Below the pieces are notes generated by a model that ran no database searches, was not told the DNA's origin, and saw only the letters and a list, made by a program, of their open reading frames with translations. Both the position numbers and the translations under genes were made by a program. This document shows positions 28,501 through 45,357 of a DNA stretch of 64,000 bases, one piece after another; position 1 is the stretch's first letter; each line of letters begins with the position of its first letter. Source of the stretch: Alphaproteobacteria bacterium (GTDB lineage: Bacteria; Pseudomonadota; Alphaproteobacteria; Micavibrionales; UBA2020); the NCBI GenBank assembly GCA_027483355.1, contig JAIXUW010000292.1, positions 4,628 through 68,627 on the forward strand, given 5' to 3'.

Positions 28501-28581
28501 AAAAAAATGTATTGTACAGTAAATCCAGGTCCTCTATGTTTATGTTTATGTTTAAGCAGCTGGTAGAACAACAGACTGTAA

Positions 28582-28779
28582 TCAGTCCTCCTTGTCCTTG
28601 TAGTAATAGACTGATCCCAGGTTCTCTTTTTTACCATCTTGGCGTGTCCATTGTTTGATTTTAATCCTTGCCCATTGAAAAGCGGCTATGGGAGCACAGA
28701 CCACGACGATGAAAGCAACTATTCCTATCCAGGCGATTATTCCACCGCCTGGTTTGTCGATTAACGTTTTTGGAGACAT
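28582..28779 (-). CDS. Small single-pass membrane protein (65 aa)
   Basis: The ORF starts at an ATG. The TM segment is GGGIIAWIGIVAFIVVVCAPIAAF and the tail is basic. Confidence 0.4.
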   Translation of the reverse strand: MSPKTLIDKPGGGIIAWIGIVAFIVVVCAPIAAFQWARIKIKQWTRQDGKKENLGSVYYYKDKED

Positions 28780-29140
28780 TTTTGTGCCTTTGTGTCCGTT
28801 TTATGTGTGCCACAACGTGTGTCTTTTTGGTTTGCAAACGCTGTCCAAAAACGATGTGTATTACCTTACTCCGTCTCCTGGCTAAAGGTATTACAATCTT
28901 CAGCCACACCCACCGCAATATTGCGTATGTTTTCGTCAGGATAATTTTGCAAACAAGGTAGCAGCCGTAGAGCGCGACCAGCAGGACGTAAAGAACTGCG
29001 CTAAATAGCAAAACTATGCACGCAAACCGCGGTAATAGCTCCAAAAACGTGGGGCTCGGTGGAGGGGTTGTAGAAGTCACAAAATGGCAGACATTACCTT
29101 CACAGACTGTTGTCTGGTAAAACCAGGTGTCCGGTTCCAT
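28661..29140 (-). CDS. Small single-pass membrane protein; the real C-terminus is probably upstream of the listed stop
   Basis: The ORF starts at an ATG. It encodes a short Cys-containing ectodomain (MEPDTWFYQTTVCEGNVCHF) and the TM segment FACIVLLFSAVLYVLLVALYGCYLV. The last 40 aa look like an out-of-frame reading of the next gene. Confidence 0.35.
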   Translation of the reverse strand: MEPDTWFYQTTVCEGNVCHFVTSTTPPPSPTFLELLPRFACIVLLFSAVLYVLLVALYGCYLVCKIILTKTYAILRWVWLKIVIPLARRRSKVIHIVFGQRLQTKKTHVVAHIKRTQRHKNVSKNVNRQTRRWNNRLDRNSCFHRRGLCSHSRFSMGKD

Positions 29141-29418
29141 TCTATTTGACGGCGAGACGAACGACGTTGAGAACGGAATAAAAGCGCGCGCCCATAAAGG
29201 CGCTCCTGCATTTCAGGCCCCCGCGGTAGGCGTGGGGTAAAATCGTCGCGAATGTCCATCAACACGAGCATTAGACGGAAGAATATCACCAGTGTTATAA
29301 AGAATTCAATCAGGGCACGTATGAGATAGAACCAAATAAAGTAGACGGTAACCACAATGAGTAAAACTAGTATTAGCAACGTAGCACCGATGATTGCATA
29401 ACCTAACATGTGACCCAT
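29077..29418 (-). CDS. Small two-pass membrane protein (113 aa)
   Basis: The ORF starts at an ATG. The hydrophobic segments are YAIIGATLLILVLLIVVTVYFIWFYLI and LIEFFITLVIFFRLMLVL. Confidence 0.4.
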   Translation of the reverse strand: MGHMLGYAIIGATLLILVLLIVVTVYFIWFYLIRALIEFFITLVIFFRLMLVLMDIRDDFTPRLPRGPEMQERLYGRALLFRSQRRSSRRQIEWNRTPGFTRQQSVKVMSAIL

Positions 29419-29580
29419 TTTTATATGGGAAATGCGTTCTTTTAGAAATGTTGTTTAACAGAATTAAACTTGATGCTTGTTTAAACTGTAACTTTTGTAA
29501 ACTCCCCTCGCTTTTTTCTTCAGACCGTTCATTCGCGTTTGTCGTAAGTGCACATTTTCCAAATCTCGCCTAGAAAAAAG

Positions 29581-30174
29581 ATGATCTACGTATTGCGTCT
29601 TGCGCAAGGAAAATTCTACGTCGGTATGTCGGCCGATCCTCAGACTCGGTTCCAACAGCACTTGGCCGGCGACTCTGACGGCGTCGAGTGGACTCGAATG
29701 TACGAACCGATTGAAATATTGGAGACAAAGCCTATTTTATCTCCGTTTGACGAAGACACGACGACAAAAGAATACATGGCGAAACATGGCATTGAAAACG
29801 TGAGAGGAGGTTCTTATTGCCAACCAAAATTGACTTCTGCTCAAGTAAAACTACTTGAGACCGAATTACGAGCAGCTCAGAATGCCTGTTTCAAGTGCGG
29901 AAACGTCGGGCATTACGCCAGAGACTGCCCCAACTTTGTCCCGCGGAACCAAAGCAGGTATTTGAACGCCATTTTCAGTTTTATAATGTCTTTGATGCCA
30001 CAAAGTACAGAGCCTGCGCAGAATAGCCTAGTTCCATACAGAGGCACTCAAAGGAGCGTGGAACAAGCGCCGGCAGAAAACACGGCGCGTGAGCCGTGTC
30101 GCAGATGCGGGCGTAATTCGCATTCGGTGAATTATTGCTACGCTACGTGGCATATAAATGGGCATAAATTGTGA
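29581..30174 (+). CDS. GIY-YIG nuclease domain fused to two CCHC-type zinc knuckles
   Basis: MIYVLRLAQGKFYVGMSADPQTRFQQH...ENVRGGSY carries the GIY/YVG, Arg, His and Glu positions. The knuckles are CFKCGNVGHYARDC and CRRCGRNSHSVNYC. Confidence 0.7.
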   Translation: MIYVLRLAQGKFYVGMSADPQTRFQQHLAGDSDGVEWTRMYEPIEILETKPILSPFDEDTTTKEYMAKHGIENVRGGSYCQPKLTSAQVKLLETELRAAQNACFKCGNVGHYARDCPNFVPRNQSRYLNAIFSFIMSLMPQSTEPAQNSLVPYRGTQRSVEQAPAENTAREPCRRCGRNSHSVNYCYATWHINGHKL

Positions 30175-30298
30175 ATACAGTTCATTTACACATATATGCA
30201 GTAAAAACACCCCTCCCCCCTTGTGTTAGACTTGTGTGCTTTTGTTTGTTGCTTTCAAAACTTAATCTATTCACGATAGAGCACGAAAAAAACCGAAT

Positions 30299-31068
30299 AT
30301 GGATCTAGTTGTCGACGTTCTCGGCAACGCCGACGATTTGCGCGCGCACGACGAGGCGTTTCTGACGCACTTAAACATCAAGTGCATTGACGATTCATTC
30401 GATACATTGGCTAGCACGCTTGACTTTCGTCCCTCGCTAAAGGCTAGAGGGTCACGTTTGTATATTTACGGTACACGACGCCTGTCCTTTAAATCGCGCG
30501 TCCTTGCTCCGCGGCTCATTCTATTCCATGCAGACCTTGTAATGAACATTAATCTGAACTTTGCCAAGTTTAGTTCTCGTCCCGGCATTGCAACCAATGC
30601 CCTGTATCACAGAGCATATCAACACATTGCTCACAGACTCATGGCACGGTTTTTTACAGACCCGCCGCGTGATTTGCTCCTTTTTTTTTTTGCTGAACAA
30701 CCATTTTTTGTGTTACTCAGGAACTCATATCAGGGGACAATGTAGAAAATTGGAATCTGGCTTACGTAACTTTTGTGAACAAAGATCTGGCGTTCATCGA
30801 AGGCTACGTAAAAAGATTGCCCATACAAGGTTTATCAGAATACTTTGTCGAGCTCCGTCAAATCATCGATTTGATTCTATCTGATGATCCGATGGCCTAC
30901 ATGGACTTGAACGCGCGTGCGAAGCTCTATCCGGCTCTCGGAAACCCTAAAAGACTTCTCGGCATTTTGGAAAAATTCAAAGAGACGGTCGCATTGTGTA
31001 CCTTGTTTACTTTAGGAAGAAAAGCATGCCAGTTGTTTACTTTGATCAAAAAACTCAAAGAATCGTGA
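30299..31068 (+). pseudogene. One gene apparently broken by a frameshift near T-homopolymers (or by an assembly error)
   Basis: Frame 2 (ATG 30299) reads through T11 (30681-30691) and T6 (30704-30709) into LLLFFFAEQPFF and stops at 30745. Frame 1 is open from 30697 and reads as protein (QELISGDNVENWNLAYVTFVNKDLAFIEGYVKRL...) but has no ATG, and the listed start is a GTG at 30775. One extra T in the T6 run would join the two frames. I found no canonical in-phase GT...AG intron. Confidence 0.35.
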
Positions 31069-31105
31069 ACTCTGGGACATTCATTGCGTATTTGTACTTA
31101 TATAC

Positions 31106-31111
31106 AATAAA
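31106..31111 (+). terminator. AATAAA polyadenylation signal
   Basis: It lies 38 nt after the stop at 31068. Confidence 0.45.
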
Positions 31112-31133
31112 AGCAGATACGAAAAAGTCATAT

Positions 31134-31601
31134 TTACAACTCGCATGCATTCTTTGCGTGGATTTCTTCCGAAGAACACGAAGGACACCCATTGCTGCAA
31201 ATGTAATGCATCGGATTTTCAAACGGACAGTCCAGATACGCCTTTACCATACAGCCCGTGGTACCCGGTGGGCAAGTGCAAACACTTACCGCCTTGGATG
31301 TCAAGCTCACTTTGCATCCTGTGCCGCGCACCCAACTGTCGGCGCCCTTTATCGAACACGAAGGACACCCGCTGTAATCGTAATGCCACGGATCGTCAAG
31401 CGGGCAGTCAATTTGCGCTCTTGCCATGCAGTCAAAGGTATCTGGTGGACAAGTGCAAACATTCAATGTTTTCGATTTCCCGCTTATTTTACATCCTGTG
31501 TTGCACTCCCAAAAGTCGTCGTCCTCGTCGTCCTCGTCTTCAACATTGTTCTTCTTCTCTTCATTCGAGACATTTTCTTGCTTTGAATTGATGTTTTCCA
31601 T
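31134..31601 (-). CDS. Cys-rich protein with an acidic N-terminus and two copies of an 8-Cys roughly 55-aa module
   Basis: The ATG is at 31601. The module W..TGCK.S..SK..xVCTCPP....CM..A..DCP...P.HY.xS.GCPSC occurs twice. The protein is a paralog of 31733-32035. Confidence 0.6.
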   Translation of the reverse strand: MENINSKQENVSNEEKKNNVEDEDDEDDDFWECNTGCKISGKSKTLNVCTCPPDTFDCMARAQIDCPLDDPWHYDYSGCPSCSIKGADSWVRGTGCKVSLTSKAVSVCTCPPGTTGCMVKAYLDCPFENPMHYICSNGCPSCSSEEIHAKNACEL

Positions 31602-31732
31602 GACGAATAGTTACACAGAAAAGTCACATAAACCCGAGCAAATGAAGTCTATTCCCCCTTTCAGAACTTGAGTTCCTGGTCGAATTAACTTTTGTATTTA
31701 TGCAAAGTAAAGCAGATACGATAAAGTTATAT

Positions 31733-32035
31733 TTACATCTCGCGTGCGTTCTTTGCGTCTATTTCCGCCATCAAACACGAAGGACAACCGTCGCTGCAAT
31801 TGTAATGCATTGGGTCTTCAAACGGGCAGTCGAGATGCGCTCTTACCATACACTCCGTTTCACCGGGTGGGCAAGTGCAAACGCTCAATGCCTTGGATGT
31901 CCAGCTCATTTTGCATCCAGTGCTGTCTATCCAAAAGTCGTCGTCGCCGGCGTCTTCAAGCTCTGGCATTTCGCCGTCCGTATCGTCATCTTTTTTGTTT
32001 GATACATCTTCTTGCTTTGAATTAGAGTCTTCCAT
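31733..32035 (-). CDS. Cys-rich protein, a one-module paralog of 31134-31601
   Basis: The first ATG at 32035 gives MEDSNSKQEDVSN...DDDFWIDSTGCKMSWTSKALSVCTCPPGETECMVRAHLDCPFEDPMHYNCSDGCPSC. The flanking non-coding sequence is also similar to that of its neighbour. Confidence 0.6.
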   Translation of the reverse strand: MEDSNSKQEDVSNKKDDDTDGEMPELEDAGDDDFWIDSTGCKMSWTSKALSVCTCPPGETECMVRAHLDCPFEDPMHYNCSDGCPSCLMAEIDAKNAREM

Positions 32036-32048
32036 GGCAGAAAAGAAG

Positions 32049-34442
32049 TCACATAAACCCAATCAACGCGTCCAGTTTACCCGACTCGTGCCAATTTGAA
32101 TGGGGGGATTCGTAGGCCTCGAGCAAATGAATGCGATTCCCGTTTTCGGAACTAGACTTCTTGATCGAATTAACTTTTGTCTTTGCGGTCACAGATTTGC
32201 CCACGGACGTCAGTCTCGCCATTCTTTGGAATATTTCCGATTTCAGGACTTCGGGAGTGAACAACGACATATACCTTTTGACTAGAATCTTTCCTACCGT
32301 AAACGCGGGGCTTGAAACGCCATCTTGCTCGGCACTGGTCACTAGTCGCTCCAAAAAGTCCAACACAGATTCCTGAGACGCCTTTGACAGCACCATACTT
32401 ATGATTTCAATGTATAGATCCTTTTCAGCTTGTGGAACGTTCTCTTGTTTGGGTTCCAGCGCCTTGCACGTTTCGACTGAAATTCTGTCTTGTCCGTCCG
32501 TGATCCAGCAATACCCCGTTTTGTGCTGAATATACACGGCTTTGAAAAACTCGAGAGGTTTGATTTCAATCCGTTTCAGCCGCATGATATGCAAATTGTA
32601 GTCAATCAAGTCCGCCATTTCCTTCCTGTCCATTTTGGAAACGTGCAGAAGCATGGAATCCGTAATTCCAAGCAGGAATCCTCTATCGTTGTTTGTAATA
32701 TCGCACAGGGCCGTGTTCAATCGGCGTCCTATCTCAAAAATGTAGAACCTGCCCCATGCTGTAACCGCCGAGCCCAGCGCAGGAGCCGAATATCTCATGG
32801 ATCTCGTGAGAATAGCGCCGTACAATGAAGATAAAAGGTTTTTGAGCGCGGTTTGAACAATTGGATCAGTGGACTTGTTCCTAAGTTGAACACCAGCCCA
32901 TACTGCTTCTGGAATCGGCGCCAACTGCGCTTCAAGTTTCTTGATTTTAAGCATAGGAACTTCCTTGCCCTGTCGGACTAATTTCTCTTTCTCGGCCTTG
33001 GTCAGCTTGTTAAACGGGTCCAATTTGCTCACATTATAATCTTGCGTTTTGCGGATTCTGCGGCTTGCAGCGGGAATATCATCGGCCAAACATGGTACTC
33101 TATTAATGTGGGAGAGCGGCTGAGTGACACACAGATCTTGCTCGGCGATAATCGACGGGTAGTACGACCGAATGTCAATCATGACAATTTCGTGAGTGTC
33201 ATCGGCAAAATGAACACCCTTTTGCGGTTCTTTTACAGATCCACCAGCCGAATCATTCGCCGAGCCCTTGACGTACTCTGCTGATCTTTTCGGGTACGGA
33301 AGCACGACGTAGTTACGCTTGATCAGCGACTTGGTGATAAAATACTCGACCATTTTCTTCTTCTTTGACGTCGTAAGCAAATCCATCAACGTAAGATGCA
33401 AGGGAATCGCGGCGAATTGCGACAATGCAACGGCCACTGGAATTGCAGCGTCAATCTGCTCTTTGGTCGTGCCATTGTACACGGGAACGTATATCCAATT
33501 GCTCTTGGTTCTGGATAGCGAGATTTTGCTTGCATCTGGCTGTAGGACTTCGAGAACGCGCTTGGTGCCGTCATCGGCGAAAAGGCACGTCTCGTCCGAC
33601 GTTTCCTCGTCTTTGAAATGCTCCGATTTTGCGAATATGATTTTCAAATCAAATCTGCTCAACTCGTGCAAGACTGTTTCGAGATTTGACGTGTCGGCAC
33701 AGGACTTGAATTCCTTGGCGACATTGTCTGACGCAAACTGCACGTTGAATTTACGCAATCCAACTTGAGCTTGGTCAGCGCATTCGATAATACAATAGTC
33801 CAGCAAGGCTGCGGCGTCTTTGTGAACAAATTCAGTCTTTGGCCGGTCGAACAACGCTGAGAACTCTTTGGGTGTCATTTCGCGGATCTCCGAATCCTTG
33901 TGTTGTTGTGACCCATTATGTGCGTCCGGAATGTCAAATGTGCCACATAGAGTAAATTTGGGCTGCAGTCTCTGCAACACTTCAAGCGGTTGCATGGACG
34001 CTCTTGTATCCGTCGTCGGAATCGCAAAAAATTCGACTTGAATTTGCGTTTTCAAATGTTCACTTATCAAATAGTCCGTGAGCTCCATGTTCACGTGCAT
34101 GGCCAGCTTTTCAAAGTCGTAGTCTCGTCCACTCGGAGAAATGTTGTCCACGCGGAACCAGTACTTTGTATTCTGCGCCTGACCTTGTTTTGGAGGAGCT
34201 AAAGCTCGAGGATAGCGCATTTCAGCGTCCGGGTCGGCCACGATCGAAAGAACGCCATCGGGACTCGAAAGCGACTTGAGTTTTTCCAAACGAGCGCCCG
34301 TCACGTAAAACCAGCCGCTGACTCGCACGTCGTTCACGGTGATAATCACATTTGCCAGCGTGTCCAAGCAGAATCCAAATACGTTGATAGCGTCTCTGTT
34401 CGGGTATTGCACCAACACGCACTTGTACACGAATAAGCGCAT
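32049..34442 (-). CDS. Family B DNA polymerase, short (797 aa) with divergent catalytic motifs
   Basis: Motif A is DIRSYYPSI (DxxSLYPS), motif B is KNLLSSLYG (KxxxNSxYG) and motif C is LGITDS (YGDTDS). The N-terminal domain has the INVFG....V.V..V..WFYV pattern. The ExoI-like segment reads TFDIPD instead of FDIE. Confidence 0.75.
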   Translation of the reverse strand: MRLFVYKCVLVQYPNRDAINVFGFCLDTLANVIITVNDVRVSGWFYVTGARLEKLKSLSSPDGVLSIVADPDAEMRYPRALAPPKQGQAQNTKYWFRVDNISPSGRDYDFEKLAMHVNMELTDYLISEHLKTQIQVEFFAIPTTDTRASMQPLEVLQRLQPKFTLCGTFDIPDAHNGSQQHKDSEIREMTPKEFSALFDRPKTEFVHKDAAALLDYCIIECADQAQVGLRKFNVQFASDNVAKEFKSCADTSNLETVLHELSRFDLKIIFAKSEHFKDEETSDETCLFADDGTKRVLEVLQPDASKISLSRTKSNWIYVPVYNGTTKEQIDAAIPVAVALSQFAAIPLHLTLMDLLTTSKKKKMVEYFITKSLIKRNYVVLPYPKRSAEYVKGSANDSAGGSVKEPQKGVHFADDTHEIVMIDIRSYYPSIIAEQDLCVTQPLSHINRVPCLADDIPAASRRIRKTQDYNVSKLDPFNKLTKAEKEKLVRQGKEVPMLKIKKLEAQLAPIPEAVWAGVQLRNKSTDPIVQTALKNLLSSLYGAILTRSMRYSAPALGSAVTAWGRFYIFEIGRRLNTALCDITNNDRGFLLGITDSMLLHVSKMDRKEMADLIDYNLHIMRLKRIEIKPLEFFKAVYIQHKTGYCWITDGQDRISVETCKALEPKQENVPQAEKDLYIEIISMVLSKASQESVLDFLERLVTSAEQDGVSSPAFTVGKILVKRYMSLFTPEVLKSEIFQRMARLTSVGKSVTAKTKVNSIKKSSSENGNRIHLLEAYESPHSNWHESGKLDALIGFM

Positions 34443-35115
34443 TTTTTCGGCACTAATGTCCAGAAATCCCCAGCGCTCTTTAACACGCGCGGCACTTCTT
34501 AGCAATCGTGATTTGGACTATAAAAAGTGAGTATTTAGATTAAAAGTGAAATTTTGCACCAGTGGAAGCCCGGTTTTTGACGCGCACCCCGTCCAATCGC
34601 CTCCGGAATCAAAACAAATGCGTGGCATATTCAACACAAGATTTTACATGGATAATCAGAATTTATAGTACAATTCAAAGCGCTTAAATCGGCGCGGTAA
34701 AACCGCAAACCGGTAAATATCGCCTGTACGCAAATCCAATCTCGTGCGAATGTTCTAAAATGCCAAACTAATCATATAAACCTGTTTAAAACACATTTTG
34801 ATTTTGACCCACAAGAAAAGCGATAGCGGCGGGTATAACAGGCGCGGAAAATCGTGCGACTGGTTCCGGACAACTGTCCCAAGAAAGTGCGTTTTCAAAC
34901 GTACCCACCCTGACCCGGAAATAGCGGCCGCTGCACATGCCGCTATCGATTTTCTTGACGGACAAATTCGAATATTATGTGTCGAGTAGAGACTTTGATA
35001 TTATGAATTTTTTTAACAACCGCCGAACAATACAGAACCTGCAAAACCGCGGTTTCGAACGGATTGTGCCCGGTATTCGACATAAGCAACATCGACCACA
35101 ACGCCGATTTGGCAT

Positions 35116-35187
35116 GCTCTTGTAGTGTAATTGGTAACACGTGCCGTTTTCATCGGTGAGCCCCAGGTTCGATTCCCGGCAGGAGCT
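35116..35187 (+). tRNA. tRNA-Glu: tRNA-Glu (anticodon UUC)
   Basis: A 72-nt cloverleaf was folded by hand. The acceptor stem is GCTCTTG/CAGGAGC (one G-U pair). The D arm is GTGT-AATTGGTA-ACAC. The anticodon arm is TGCCG-TTTTCAT-CGGTG. The T arm is CCAGG-TTCGATT-CCCGG (one A-C mismatch). The invariants U8, A14, G18G19, U33 and the T-loop TTCGA are present. The B box is GGTTCGATTCC. Confidence 0.8.
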
Positions 35188-35193
35188 CTTATC

Positions 35194-35198
35194 TTTTT
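35194..35198 (+). terminator. Pol III-type T5 terminator after the tRNA
   Basis: TTTTT lies 7 nt after the discriminator base. Confidence 0.5.
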
Positions 35199-35264
35199 CC
35201 CTTTGAGGCGCTTTTGTTATTGTTACTCTTATTTTTTATCGTGATTTTTATGTTTCGTAATATT

Positions 35265-43641: not shown

Positions 43642-45357
43642 ATGGAGACCTATTGTGACATCGGCAATAACTATATTTTAGATGCCCAAAAACGCGAAGA
43701 ATATTTCGCCGTATGCGAAAAACTGGCCACTCTGCCCGGTTTGACCAGCTACGTCAAATGGGCCATCCCACTGTCGTATGGTTATCGCAAAATGTGCAAA
43801 GAAGTACTTGGATATTACAAATACGAAGGAGACTTGAAAACGGACCGTGATATGCACCGCGCGATTGCAATGACGTTCACTTTGGACGGCCACTTGCTCC
43901 CATTGCATACGAATCACGTGAGTGATATTTTGAGTGCGCTTAGGAGTTATAACAACAAGTTTTACAAGGAATTGTGTGCGAAGGTGCCCAGTTTGAAAAC
44001 CAAATTCGACGGCAAAGCCTTTGGCACGCTCGATACGTACATTACGGAGAAAGATGTGCTTGCTCAAGCCATGGCCGATGATGAGAATGGAAATTTGCCG
44101 CCGCCTCCGCCGCCGGGATATCATGACGGCGAAGAGACGTGGTTTGGCGGCGGCATCGAGTCCAAATTCAAGGGCTCGTTTGCACAAGTCAACTATGAAT
44201 TGAGGACAGGATTCGAGCAGGGAACTCCAATGTGGCATTTTGTGCGCAAATTCTTTATTGGGGCAACTCGCATCAAGCACATGATGAAAGACGATCACAA
44301 TAAGAGCAAGGTCTCGCAGACTCCTGGGCCAGTTGCCAAAGTTATATTGGGGCTCTCAAAAGACGAGCCTTTCAGTCCCTATGTCAAAAAAGCGTTGGCT
44401 CATGGGCAGCAAATGGAAGACATGGCGCGCCAGGGCTACGTCAAGTTGCTTGACAAGGCGAATGAGAACGAGGTATCCGCGAGCGGAAACCCGGTCCATT
44501 TTGAGGCCGTAGAATACGGAATGACCGTGGCACCTTATTTGCCCATATTCTACGCGCAATCACCCGACGGTGTCACGCTCGACGTTGAAACTCAGACACC
44601 CGTGGGGTGCCTCGAAATCAAATGTCACTGGATGAAATACAAGACCGAAGCAGGCTTGCCCAATATATACAGGGGTCAATGCTTGCAGTGCATGGTCGCG
44701 TTTTCTGACTGGGTCGTCATAGCTCCTGGAGTAAAGCTCGAACAGGGTCAACAGCCCGAATTTGATGTCCCTCACTGTGATTTTGTAAGCATGTTCTACA
44801 GACAGGACACAGATTCAAAGTACAAACAGGCGCACGATCCGGACATTGTGGAATTTACGGTTGAAAGAGTGTACAAACACCCCGGGCTCGTCAAGTCCTT
44901 TGTCCGGTTCTTAGTCACTTACGCGTTCTATGTGCAACTTTACACGGCCAAGGAATCTGTTCAGACACCGACAGCGCAAAAGGAAGTCAAGCTGTGCATG
45001 GATTTGGTCTCGGCCGAGATTGAACGGCTCTTGATAGACGTGAATTCTGAATTTGACCAAATGAAACGAGCTCATTTTTCGATTGTGAGAGGAGAGGAAA
45101 CGCTGGAAGTCAAGAATCTGAAAATGGATTTGAAAACCGAGTTCTTCCAGGGCGACGCCAAATTGTACAACAAATGGTATGGAAAACAAGCCGTGTTTCC
45201 TGATACACGTCCGAAAAAGGACGCCCAGGACGCCCAGGACGCCCAGGACGAGGCTCGAGCACCTCCGAGACAAAAGAACAATTTTGCCGGGCCCATGATT
45301 GCAAGAACGGGTGCTAGTGCCAGACCCAATCCTTATTTGCAGAAATTGGGTAAATGA
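43642..45357 (+). CDS. YqaJ / herpes-UL12 / baculovirus-AN type alkaline exonuclease (PD-(D/E)XK)
   Basis: The catalytic block is YAQSPDGVTLDVETQTPVGCLEIKCHWMKYK (Asp ... E-x-K, with the EIKC signature). The protein is 571 aa. Its C-terminus contains a 3 x GACGCCCAG (DAQ) micro-repeat at 45220-45246. AATAAA lies at 45371. Confidence 0.7.
   Translation: METYCDIGNNYILDAQKREEYFAVCEKLATLPGLTSYVKWAIPLSYGYRKMCKEVLGYYKYEGDLKTDRDMHRAIAMTFTLDGHLLPLHTNHVSDILSALRSYNNKFYKELCAKVPSLKTKFDGKAFGTLDTYITEKDVLAQAMADDENGNLPPPPPPGYHDGEETWFGGGIESKFKGSFAQVNYELRTGFEQGTPMWHFVRKFFIGATRIKHMMKDDHNKSKVSQTPGPVAKVILGLSKDEPFSPYVKKALAHGQQMEDMARQGYVKLLDKANENEVSASGNPVHFEAVEYGMTVAPYLPIFYAQSPDGVTLDVETQTPVGCLEIKCHWMKYKTEAGLPNIYRGQCLQCMVAFSDWVVIAPGVKLEQGQQPEFDVPHCDFVSMFYRQDTDSKYKQAHDPDIVEFTVERVYKHPGLVKSFVRFLVTYAFYVQLYTAKESVQTPTAQKEVKLCMDLVSAEIERLLIDVNSEFDQMKRAHFSIVRGEETLEVKNLKMDLKTEFFQGDAKLYNKWYGKQAVFPDTRPKKDAQDAQDAQDEARAPPRQKNNFAGPMIARTGASARPNPYLQKLGK

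Follow-up and report, generated by a model that had tools for sequence, protein, structure and literature searches.

A family-B DNA polymerase that appears to lack proofreading is the sole recognizable DNA polymerase of a 292-kb viral genome

We analyzed a 64,000-nucleotide window (positions 4628-68627) of a 292,368-bp contig deposited under the name Alphaproteobacteria bacterium, focusing on an open reading frame (ORF) on its minus strand, 32049-34442, whose 797-aa product we refer to as P0001. This ORF is a genuine family-B DNA polymerase (PolB) gene, the contig represents a large eukaryotic virus of marine origin whose genome was mis-binned in a bacterial metagenome-assembled genome (MAG), and P0001 is the sole recognizable DNA polymerase of that 292-kb genome. 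Judged from its sequence, P0001 is probably an active and error-tolerant polymerase without 3′-5′ proofreading. The best explanation of the whole, and the one towards which we lean, is an active non-proofreading PolB that serves a 292-kb virus as its sole polymerase and whose leading candidate role is that of an initiator resembling Pol alpha. The common view is that a large DNA virus must encode a replicase with proofreading, or, according to a recent proposal for nuclear mirusviruses, no polymerase at all; with one polymerase pared down to a bare catalytic core, this genome would represent a third state.

Identity and catalytic motifs of the polymerase

Family membership was evident from sequence, profile and fold comparisons. 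P0001 matched Pfam PF00136 over residues 357-707 with 43.5 bits (cut-off 23; E 2.5e-11), its sole Pfam match at E<=1, and PHROG 262 with an E value of 1.2e-20. A search of the PDB with the single sequence returned Thermococcus PolBs at the top (E ~1e-8) and Pol alpha next, the profile built from the P0001 family reached a best E value of 1e-20 in the same database, and every top Foldseek match of the structural model was a PolB. With three aligned family sequences as input, AlphaFold produced an unusable model with a predicted local distance difference test score (pLDDT) of 40, whereas a 37-sequence PolB alignment, which includes Pol alpha and 30 viral PolBs, raised the pLDDT to 63, good only for residues 210-745 and reaching 80-96 in the polymerase domain.

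The features of the gene and its product are as follows.

32049-34442, minus strand: complete, single-exon PolB gene encoding P0001 (797 aa), defined by its ORF translation and by termini collinear with those of the relatives P0002 and P0003
33393-34442, minus strand: N-terminal 350 residues, with the size and order of the N-terminal and exonuclease domains of compact PolBs and no recognizable DEDD catalytic site
34014-34028, minus strand: FAIPT (F139-A140-I141-P142-T143), probable equivalent of the ExoI strand with Asp changed to Ala and Glu to Pro, placed at low confidence by global hhalign against exonuclease-positive PolBs
33924-33941, minus strand: TFDIPD (residues 168-173), a chance look-alike of ExoI
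33153-33176, minus strand: motif A, DIRSYYPS (residues 423-430), from the 37-sequence and 8-member alignments
32919-33110, minus strand: lysine-rich insertion of ~64 residues (445-508; KLTKAEKEKL...KIKKLE) between motif A and the fingers
32817-32843, minus strand: motif B, KNLLSSLYG (residues 534-542), from the 8-member alignment
32655-32672, minus strand: motif C, LGITDS (residues 591-596), from the alignments and the AlphaFold model
32511-32522, minus strand: KTGY (K641-Y644), counterpart of the KKxY primer-contact motif, from the 37-PolB alignment
32052-32093, minus strand: extreme C-terminal peptide WHESGKLDALIGFM (residues 784-797), with the family pattern W-x-E-x-G-x-L-D-x-x-I-G-F

An initial reading of this DNA, made from the letters alone and called here the sequence-only reading, had described the polymerase as unusually short. 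This description is apt beside the enzymes of herpesviruses and nucleocytoplasmic large DNA viruses (NCLDVs), but a length of 797 aa is normal for compact PolBs: the Thermococcus enzymes Tgo and KOD have 773-775 aa and Escherichia coli Pol II has 783 aa. P0001 aligns with these compact enzymes over their whole length, and its Foldseek alignments to Tgo/KOD, Pol II and the Pol alpha core extend over 600-700 columns. The protein starts with MRLFVYK and ends with IGFM and a stop codon, following the family pattern MR[LV]FVYK ... IGF[MV] and a stop, and it is collinear in two full-length relatives at 47-49% identity. Because both start and stop are conserved in the relatives, no missing upstream or downstream exon, a reservation attached to the sequence-only reading, supplies the absent parts.

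Motifs A and B lie where that reading had put them, with D423, Y428, K534 and G542 in invariant columns of the 37-PolB alignment. The full set of invariant columns comprises G400, D423, Y428, K534, G542, T594, D595 and S596. In the alignment of the eight family members, no acidic residue is invariant other than D423 of motif A and D595, the second aspartate of motif C; the non-acidic Y428, R521, K534, G542, G564, R565 and S596 are invariant as well. PolBs bind the metals through residues at these two acidic positions, according to structures cited in PMC8764526. Within motif A of P0001, D423 takes the role of catalytic metal ligand and Y428 that of the steric-gate tyrosine; position 427, occupied by leucine in the canonical SLYPS, is aromatic here (Tyr or Phe, in SYYPS or SFYSS). 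In motif B, all eight family members have K534 and G542, and seven of them have Y541. One substitution had escaped the sequence-only reading: the canonical motif-B asparagine is Ser538 in P0001-P0003, while it is kept as Asn in P0004-P0007. K641 and Y644 of the KTGY segment fall in near-invariant columns of the 37-PolB alignment. The lysine-rich insertion is kept only in the three closest members, P0001-P0003, and is of low confidence in the model.

Motif C had been read as LGITDS, with both the first aspartate and the tyrosine of YGDTDS replaced, and alignment and model agree on this. All eight family members, the furthest at 18-25% identity, read [IV][TA]DS, with Ile or Val at the position of the first aspartate (Ile593 in P0001); as a control, 60 out of 60 PolBs fetched from IMG/VR have DTD. 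In the AlphaFold model, T594-D595 sit at the turn of a beta-hairpin (strands 589-593 and 596-602), the usual location of motif C. A phmmer alignment instead put motif C on NNDRGF, opposite DTDGF of KOD, and we rejected this candidate, whose D586 is unconserved beyond four members. ITDS was kept as motif C because it aligns with DTDS across the 37 sequences and occupies the model hairpin. Across the sequences compared, loss of the first motif-C aspartate is a clade-wide trait that would date from the origin of the clade.

At the other end of the protein, the conserved C-terminal peptide may serve to dock a clamp or some other partner, as its sequence suggests; distant family members terminate in L-K-x-F-F, which resembles a PIP box.

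Exonuclease region, relatives and affinity

The N-terminal part of P0001 has the extent expected of an exonuclease-bearing PolB, yet its sequence is no longer recognizable as such. We found no match to the exonuclease domain PF03104, even at E<=1, and none of the acidic residues among the first 400 positions is shared by all eight members of the family; therefore, a DEDD exonuclease site cannot be conserved, whatever the alignment. The sequence-only reading had proposed TFDIPD as an ExoI-like segment with its catalytic glutamate replaced by proline, a remnant that we rejected, since the nearest relatives read YTIDD and YTVHH at this place. Global profile-profile comparison (hhalign) pointed instead to FAIPT at 139-143 for ExoI, to L214-D215 for ExoII and to Y321...T325 (YxxxT) for ExoIII. 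FA[ILM]PT is present in four of the five closest members, P0005 having FAMP without the threonine. When the N-terminal 350 residues were compared alone, the profile-profile probability was 0.03% against exonuclease-positive PolBs and 0.7% against Pol alpha N-termini, neither of which is significant, so the mapping of the Exo motifs is tentative. Residues 1-210 are also poorly modelled by AlphaFold on the 37-sequence alignment. We conclude that the N-terminal region is present in size but has diverged past sequence recognition, and that P0001, as far as its sequence reveals, has no DEDD exonuclease site. The proofreading deficiency that had been suggested for it is thus borne out at the sequence level, and alignment of the P0001 family uncovered no intact DTD or DEDD residues elsewhere in the protein.

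The enzyme belongs to a small and highly divergent clade. A search of 1.84 billion representative proteins with hmmsearch recovered as close kin only P0003-P0007 and P0009, with lengths of 801 aa (P0004), 812 aa (P0005), 929 aa (P0006), 866 aa (P0007) and 755 aa (P0009), and identity to P0001 falls to 18-25% in the distant members. Alignment-based protein searches, constrained by their word filter, recovered few members. No further members were found in IMG/VR, JGI metagenome contigs or GTDB genomes, leaving about eight known among ~15 billion proteins. One additional candidate, P0118, was dropped; it sits in a prophage-like bacterial context. For the three close genes, the proportion of nonsynonymous differences (pN) was 0.19-0.37 and that of synonymous differences (pS) was 0.77-0.79; dN/dS is not computable with synonymous sites saturated, but a pN far below a saturated pS fits purifying selection. 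In P0003 and P0006, no polymerase shows up in the precomputed Pfam annotation, and surveys of gene content in such viruses can thus count too few polymerases.

In profile and in fold, the family comes closest to Pol alpha and next to archaeal PolBs. Against the PDB, the P0001 family profile scored 1e-20 for Pol alpha, 1e-18 to 1e-12 for archaeal PolBs, 3e-13 for Pol delta, 6e-9 for Pol II and 3e-6 for RB69. Foldseek ranked the core of human Pol alpha first in the PDB (4q5v; E 9e-14), with Tgo, KOD and 9N next. In a search of a large sequence library, 75 of the ~107 matches outside the family carried the Pol alpha signature DFNSLYPS/KLTANSMYG; the named matches were Pol alpha with PF12254, and P0116, P0117 and P0120, true Pol alpha matches, carry PF12254/PF08996 domains. 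No viral group stood out among matches in BFVD. A quick maximum-likelihood (ML) tree placed the P0001 family, itself monophyletic, with Pol alpha. Both in this tree and in a more careful one, Pol alpha is monophyletic without the P0001 family, and among the sequences compared the family forms a separate deep PolB branch, outside Pol alpha.

Several known systems share part of this combination of traits. Similar to P0001, the archaeal PolB2 enzymes, including Sulfolobus Dpo2, lack the Exo motifs and the first PolC aspartate; they were predicted to be inactive, yet Dpo2 is a robust exonuclease-less polymerase (PMC8764526, PMC7390963). Likeness to PolB2, and to bacterial G2 PolBs, was judged here by published description. 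There are also differences: PolB2 has the motif HxxxD with an invariant histidine (PMC8764526), whereas the P0001 family has x[IV][TA]DS with L, A, Y, Q and others at the His position; Dpo2 has 555 aa and no exonuclease domain, in contrast to the full-size N-terminal region of P0001; and Dpo2 serves a cell as an accessory polymerase next to its replicase, whereas P0001 is the only polymerase of a virus. Compact archaeal PolBs (Tgo, KOD, 9N, Pfu) resemble P0001 in length, domain order and rank as best single-sequence PDB matches, but they have an intact DEDDy exonuclease, YxDTD(S/G) and a C-terminal PCNA-binding motif. Pol alpha (POLA1/Pol1), the best match by both PDB profile and Foldseek, works with a PRIM1-type primase, of which a candidate homologue is encoded by the virus. 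Its exonuclease domain is naturally dead, as is that of Pol zeta (PMC7544198). Compared with Pol alpha, P0001 has ITDS instead of YGDTDS as motif C, and shorter fingers. The canonical mirusvirus PolB (Demutovirales, OG0000010), from large marine viruses whose virion module resembles that of herpesviruses, is a distinct enzyme closer to Pol delta, with ~1,070 aa, a PF00136 match of ~1e-90 and Pol delta as best structures, against 797 aa, 2.5e-11 and a closer affinity to Pol alpha and archaeal PolBs than to Pol delta for P0001.

The viral genome and the role of its polymerase

The contig belongs to a 2.87-Mb prokaryote assembly of 358 contigs, the next-largest of which is 45 kb, and has 48% GC, compared with an assembly median of 56%. 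Its first 119 nt are identical to its last 119 nt, and it is a complete genome, circularly closed or terminally redundant. We found no second PolB and no family-A polymerase anywhere on it, and the earlier proposal of a specialized second polymerase fails on this account. The other PolB of the assembly (C294:178-1689) lies on a 3.3-kb contig with 57% GC, scores 258 bits to PF00136 and clusters with other PolB types; it is the bacterium's own Pol II-type enzyme, outside the virus, and the same bacterium also has Pol I. On the 292-kb contig, there were no Pfam matches for RNA polymerase, ribonucleotide reductase (RNR), PCNA or archaeal-type PriS, nor for heliorhodopsin, TBP or histone, which are frequent among mirusvirus core genes, and we detected neither a clamp or clamp loader nor a proofreading subunit. 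Candidate ORFs for capsid, protease and terminase had no match in Pfam, PHROGs or the PDB, and the herpes terminase profile was silent. One candidate replication gene other than the polymerase is of particular relevance.

59926-60828, plus strand: PRIM1-like small primase subunit, 300 aa, whose ten best PDB matches are eukaryotic primase small subunits

The DxD, Zn-knuckle, SGxRGxH and FSxHxKT segments of this protein, and with them all AEP motifs, are collinear with those of PRIM1, and from these sequence features the primase is a likely functional partner of P0001.

For catalysis, the carboxylates of D423 and D595 would bind the metals, Y428 would be the steric gate and K534 would bind the triphosphate. 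As to the first motif-C aspartate, which points away from the active center in solved PolBs, its place would have been taken by Ile or Val. PolB structures have the second motif-C aspartate binding metal and the first pointing away (PMC8764526), and piPolB, also devoid of the first aspartate, is active (PMC7544198). For replication, P0001 and the viral primase would work together as Pol alpha does with its own primase: in the host nucleus, P0001 may elongate RNA primers both at the origins of the virus and during lagging-strand synthesis, with PCNA-dependent proofreading polymerases of the host doing or correcting the bulk of synthesis. This role as a Pol alpha-like initiator is a tentative refinement of the active reading, put forward by our analysis. 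It is favored because a 292-kb genome could hardly be copied wholly without proofreading; an exonuclease-deficient PolB copying a genome of this size would make several errors per copy, a heavy mutation load. A minimal viral "Pol alpha-primase" module made up of P0001 and the PRIM1-like primase, with no clamp, clamp loader, RNR or RNA polymerase, through which origin firing would be independent of the host's cell-cycle-controlled Pol alpha-primase and elongation and correction would be left to host nuclear polymerases, is a rather doubtful further step. If true, it would amount to a split replication strategy undescribed for large DNA viruses, and the published view that mirus-type viruses confined to the nucleus depend entirely on the polymerases of their hosts would need qualification.

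Several observations weigh against an active enzyme working in the manner of Pol alpha. Within the catalytic core, the motif-B asparagine is replaced by serine in the P0001-P0003 subclade, the KKxY-type motif is poorly preserved in the distant members, and the family has no obvious residue to compensate for loss of the first aspartate, as might be sought by comparison with the histidine of PolB2. P0001 also has neither the PF12254 N-terminal domain nor the PF08996 Zn-finger C-terminal domain of Pol alpha. Unlike the quick tree, the careful tree sets the family beside archaeal-type PolBs, and the approximately unbiased (AU) test rejects neither this nor the Pol alpha placement (p 0.30). As for the partners, the PDB matches of the primase are marginal (E 0.06-0.08) and it has no Pfam match, and neither PriL nor a B-subunit was found; the ORF that overlaps the primase gene, 60761-61585, has no PriL-like match.

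Three other explanations were weighed, beginning with a specialized damage-tolerance polymerase. On this account, which we regard as unlikely, P0001 would be an extender or translesion enzyme like PolB2/Dpo2 or Pol zeta, useful to a sunlight-exposed marine virus whose genome is replicated by the host. Such a division of labor would suit a virus that appears to be nucleus-dependent, with no RNA polymerase, RNR or PCNA found, and P0001 displays both hallmarks of PolB2, namely the absence of exonuclease motifs and the loss of the first motif-C aspartate, along with an aromatic residue beside the steric gate (SYYPS/SFYSS instead of SLYPS). However, a sole polymerase whose gene shares a conserved neighborhood with that of a YqaJ nuclease, in a genome that encodes a primase, points to replication and not to repair alone; moreover, the invariant histidine of PolB2 HxxxD is missing, and the nearest profiles are those of Pol alpha and of replicative archaeal PolBs.

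A full, stand-alone genome replicase that tolerates or exploits a high mutation rate ranges in our estimate from unlikely to very unlikely. Several errors would be expected in each copy of a 292-kb genome made without proofreading, the contig has no detectable clamp, clamp loader or proofreading subunit, and DTD is present in all large DNA virus replicases sampled (60 IMG/VR PolBs). In its favor are the position of P0001 as sole polymerase in a closed genome, the hydrophobic C-terminal peptide at the place where archaeal PolBs have their clamp-binding motif, and the precedent of exonuclease-less Dpo2, which copies undamaged DNA with high fidelity (PMC8764526).

Finally, a catalytically dead PolB serving as a structural or scaffolding subunit, comparable to Pol epsilon in its C-terminal half and perhaps recruiting host replication proteins, is unlikely, as is the non-catalytic paralog entertained at the outset: even though several "invariant" positions have changed together (the first motif-C aspartate, the tyrosine of YGDTDS, the motif-B asparagine and all Exo motifs), mutation of the first aspartate cripples several canonical PolBs (PMC8764526) and the conserved C-terminal peptide could serve docking, the residues lost in inactivated PolBs are kept here at 18-25% identity (D423, D595, Y428, K534 and G542), pN is far below pS, and active enzymes without the first aspartate exist (PMC8764526, PMC7544198).

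The active, non-proofreading reading of P0001 also bears on the published picture of nucleus-dependent viruses. Most Okeanovirales and Styxvirales are stated to be without any DNA polymerase (PMC12768974). The family table of the same study nevertheless lists "HMM_DNApolB" matches in 87% of Styx_02, 40% of Okeano_03 and a few other genomes; the families with these matches are without every other replication and transcription gene (PMC12768974, supplementary file 12), and the main text leaves the exceptions undiscussed. Finding a polymerase in a large virus that depends on the nucleus is thus not novel as such, but the deep clade, its absence of proofreading, its ITDS motif and its pairing with a PRIM1-like primase appear to be undescribed. 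If P0001 is active, its clade would be the third natural lineage without the first aspartate of DTD, after PolB2 and piPolB, and would help to gauge what share of their replication such viruses leave to the host.

Neighboring genes

The genes of the window are mostly orphans, and the recognizable ones are eukaryote-style, encoding CCHC knuckles with GIY-YIG, RING, DUF285 and YqaJ domains. Those near the polymerase gene are listed in order of position.

29548-30174, plus strand: GIY-YIG endonuclease fused to CCHC zinc knuckles, inside the segment 28501-32048
31134-31601 and 31733-32062, minus strand: two paralogous Cys-rich ORFs, inside the segment 28501-32048
43642-45357, plus strand: YqaJ-type exonuclease gene (PF09588, E 2.3e-9), with a homologue of 56% identity that keeps its place in the gene order at locus L005
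45462-46454 and 47087-48232, plus strand: two DUF285 (BspA-like repeat) genes after the YqaJ gene

Gene order around the polymerase is kept in relatives from a Tara Oceans assembly and two sequencing runs, where a gene for a 252-aa protein, the PolB gene, genes for 491-aa and 504-aa proteins and the YqaJ gene follow one another. The contig of the distant member P0006, which has 55% GC, has a giant glycoprotein and two other lineage genes in common with the 292-kb contig. From the kept order and the common lineage genes, we infer that the polymerase gene is inherited vertically and belongs to the core of a rare virus lineage.

Between the gene for the 252-aa protein and the PolB stop codon lies a segment of ~3.5 kb (28501-32048) with no counterpart in the relatives at loci L003 and L005, where the genes are ~30-80 nt apart. 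With its GIY-YIG endonuclease and Cys-rich ORFs, this segment looks like a mobile insertion beside the PolB gene. Upstream of the PolB gene there is a non-coding gap of 820 nt (34443-35264), within which a tRNA-Glu(TTC) gene is located at 35116-35188 on the opposite strand.

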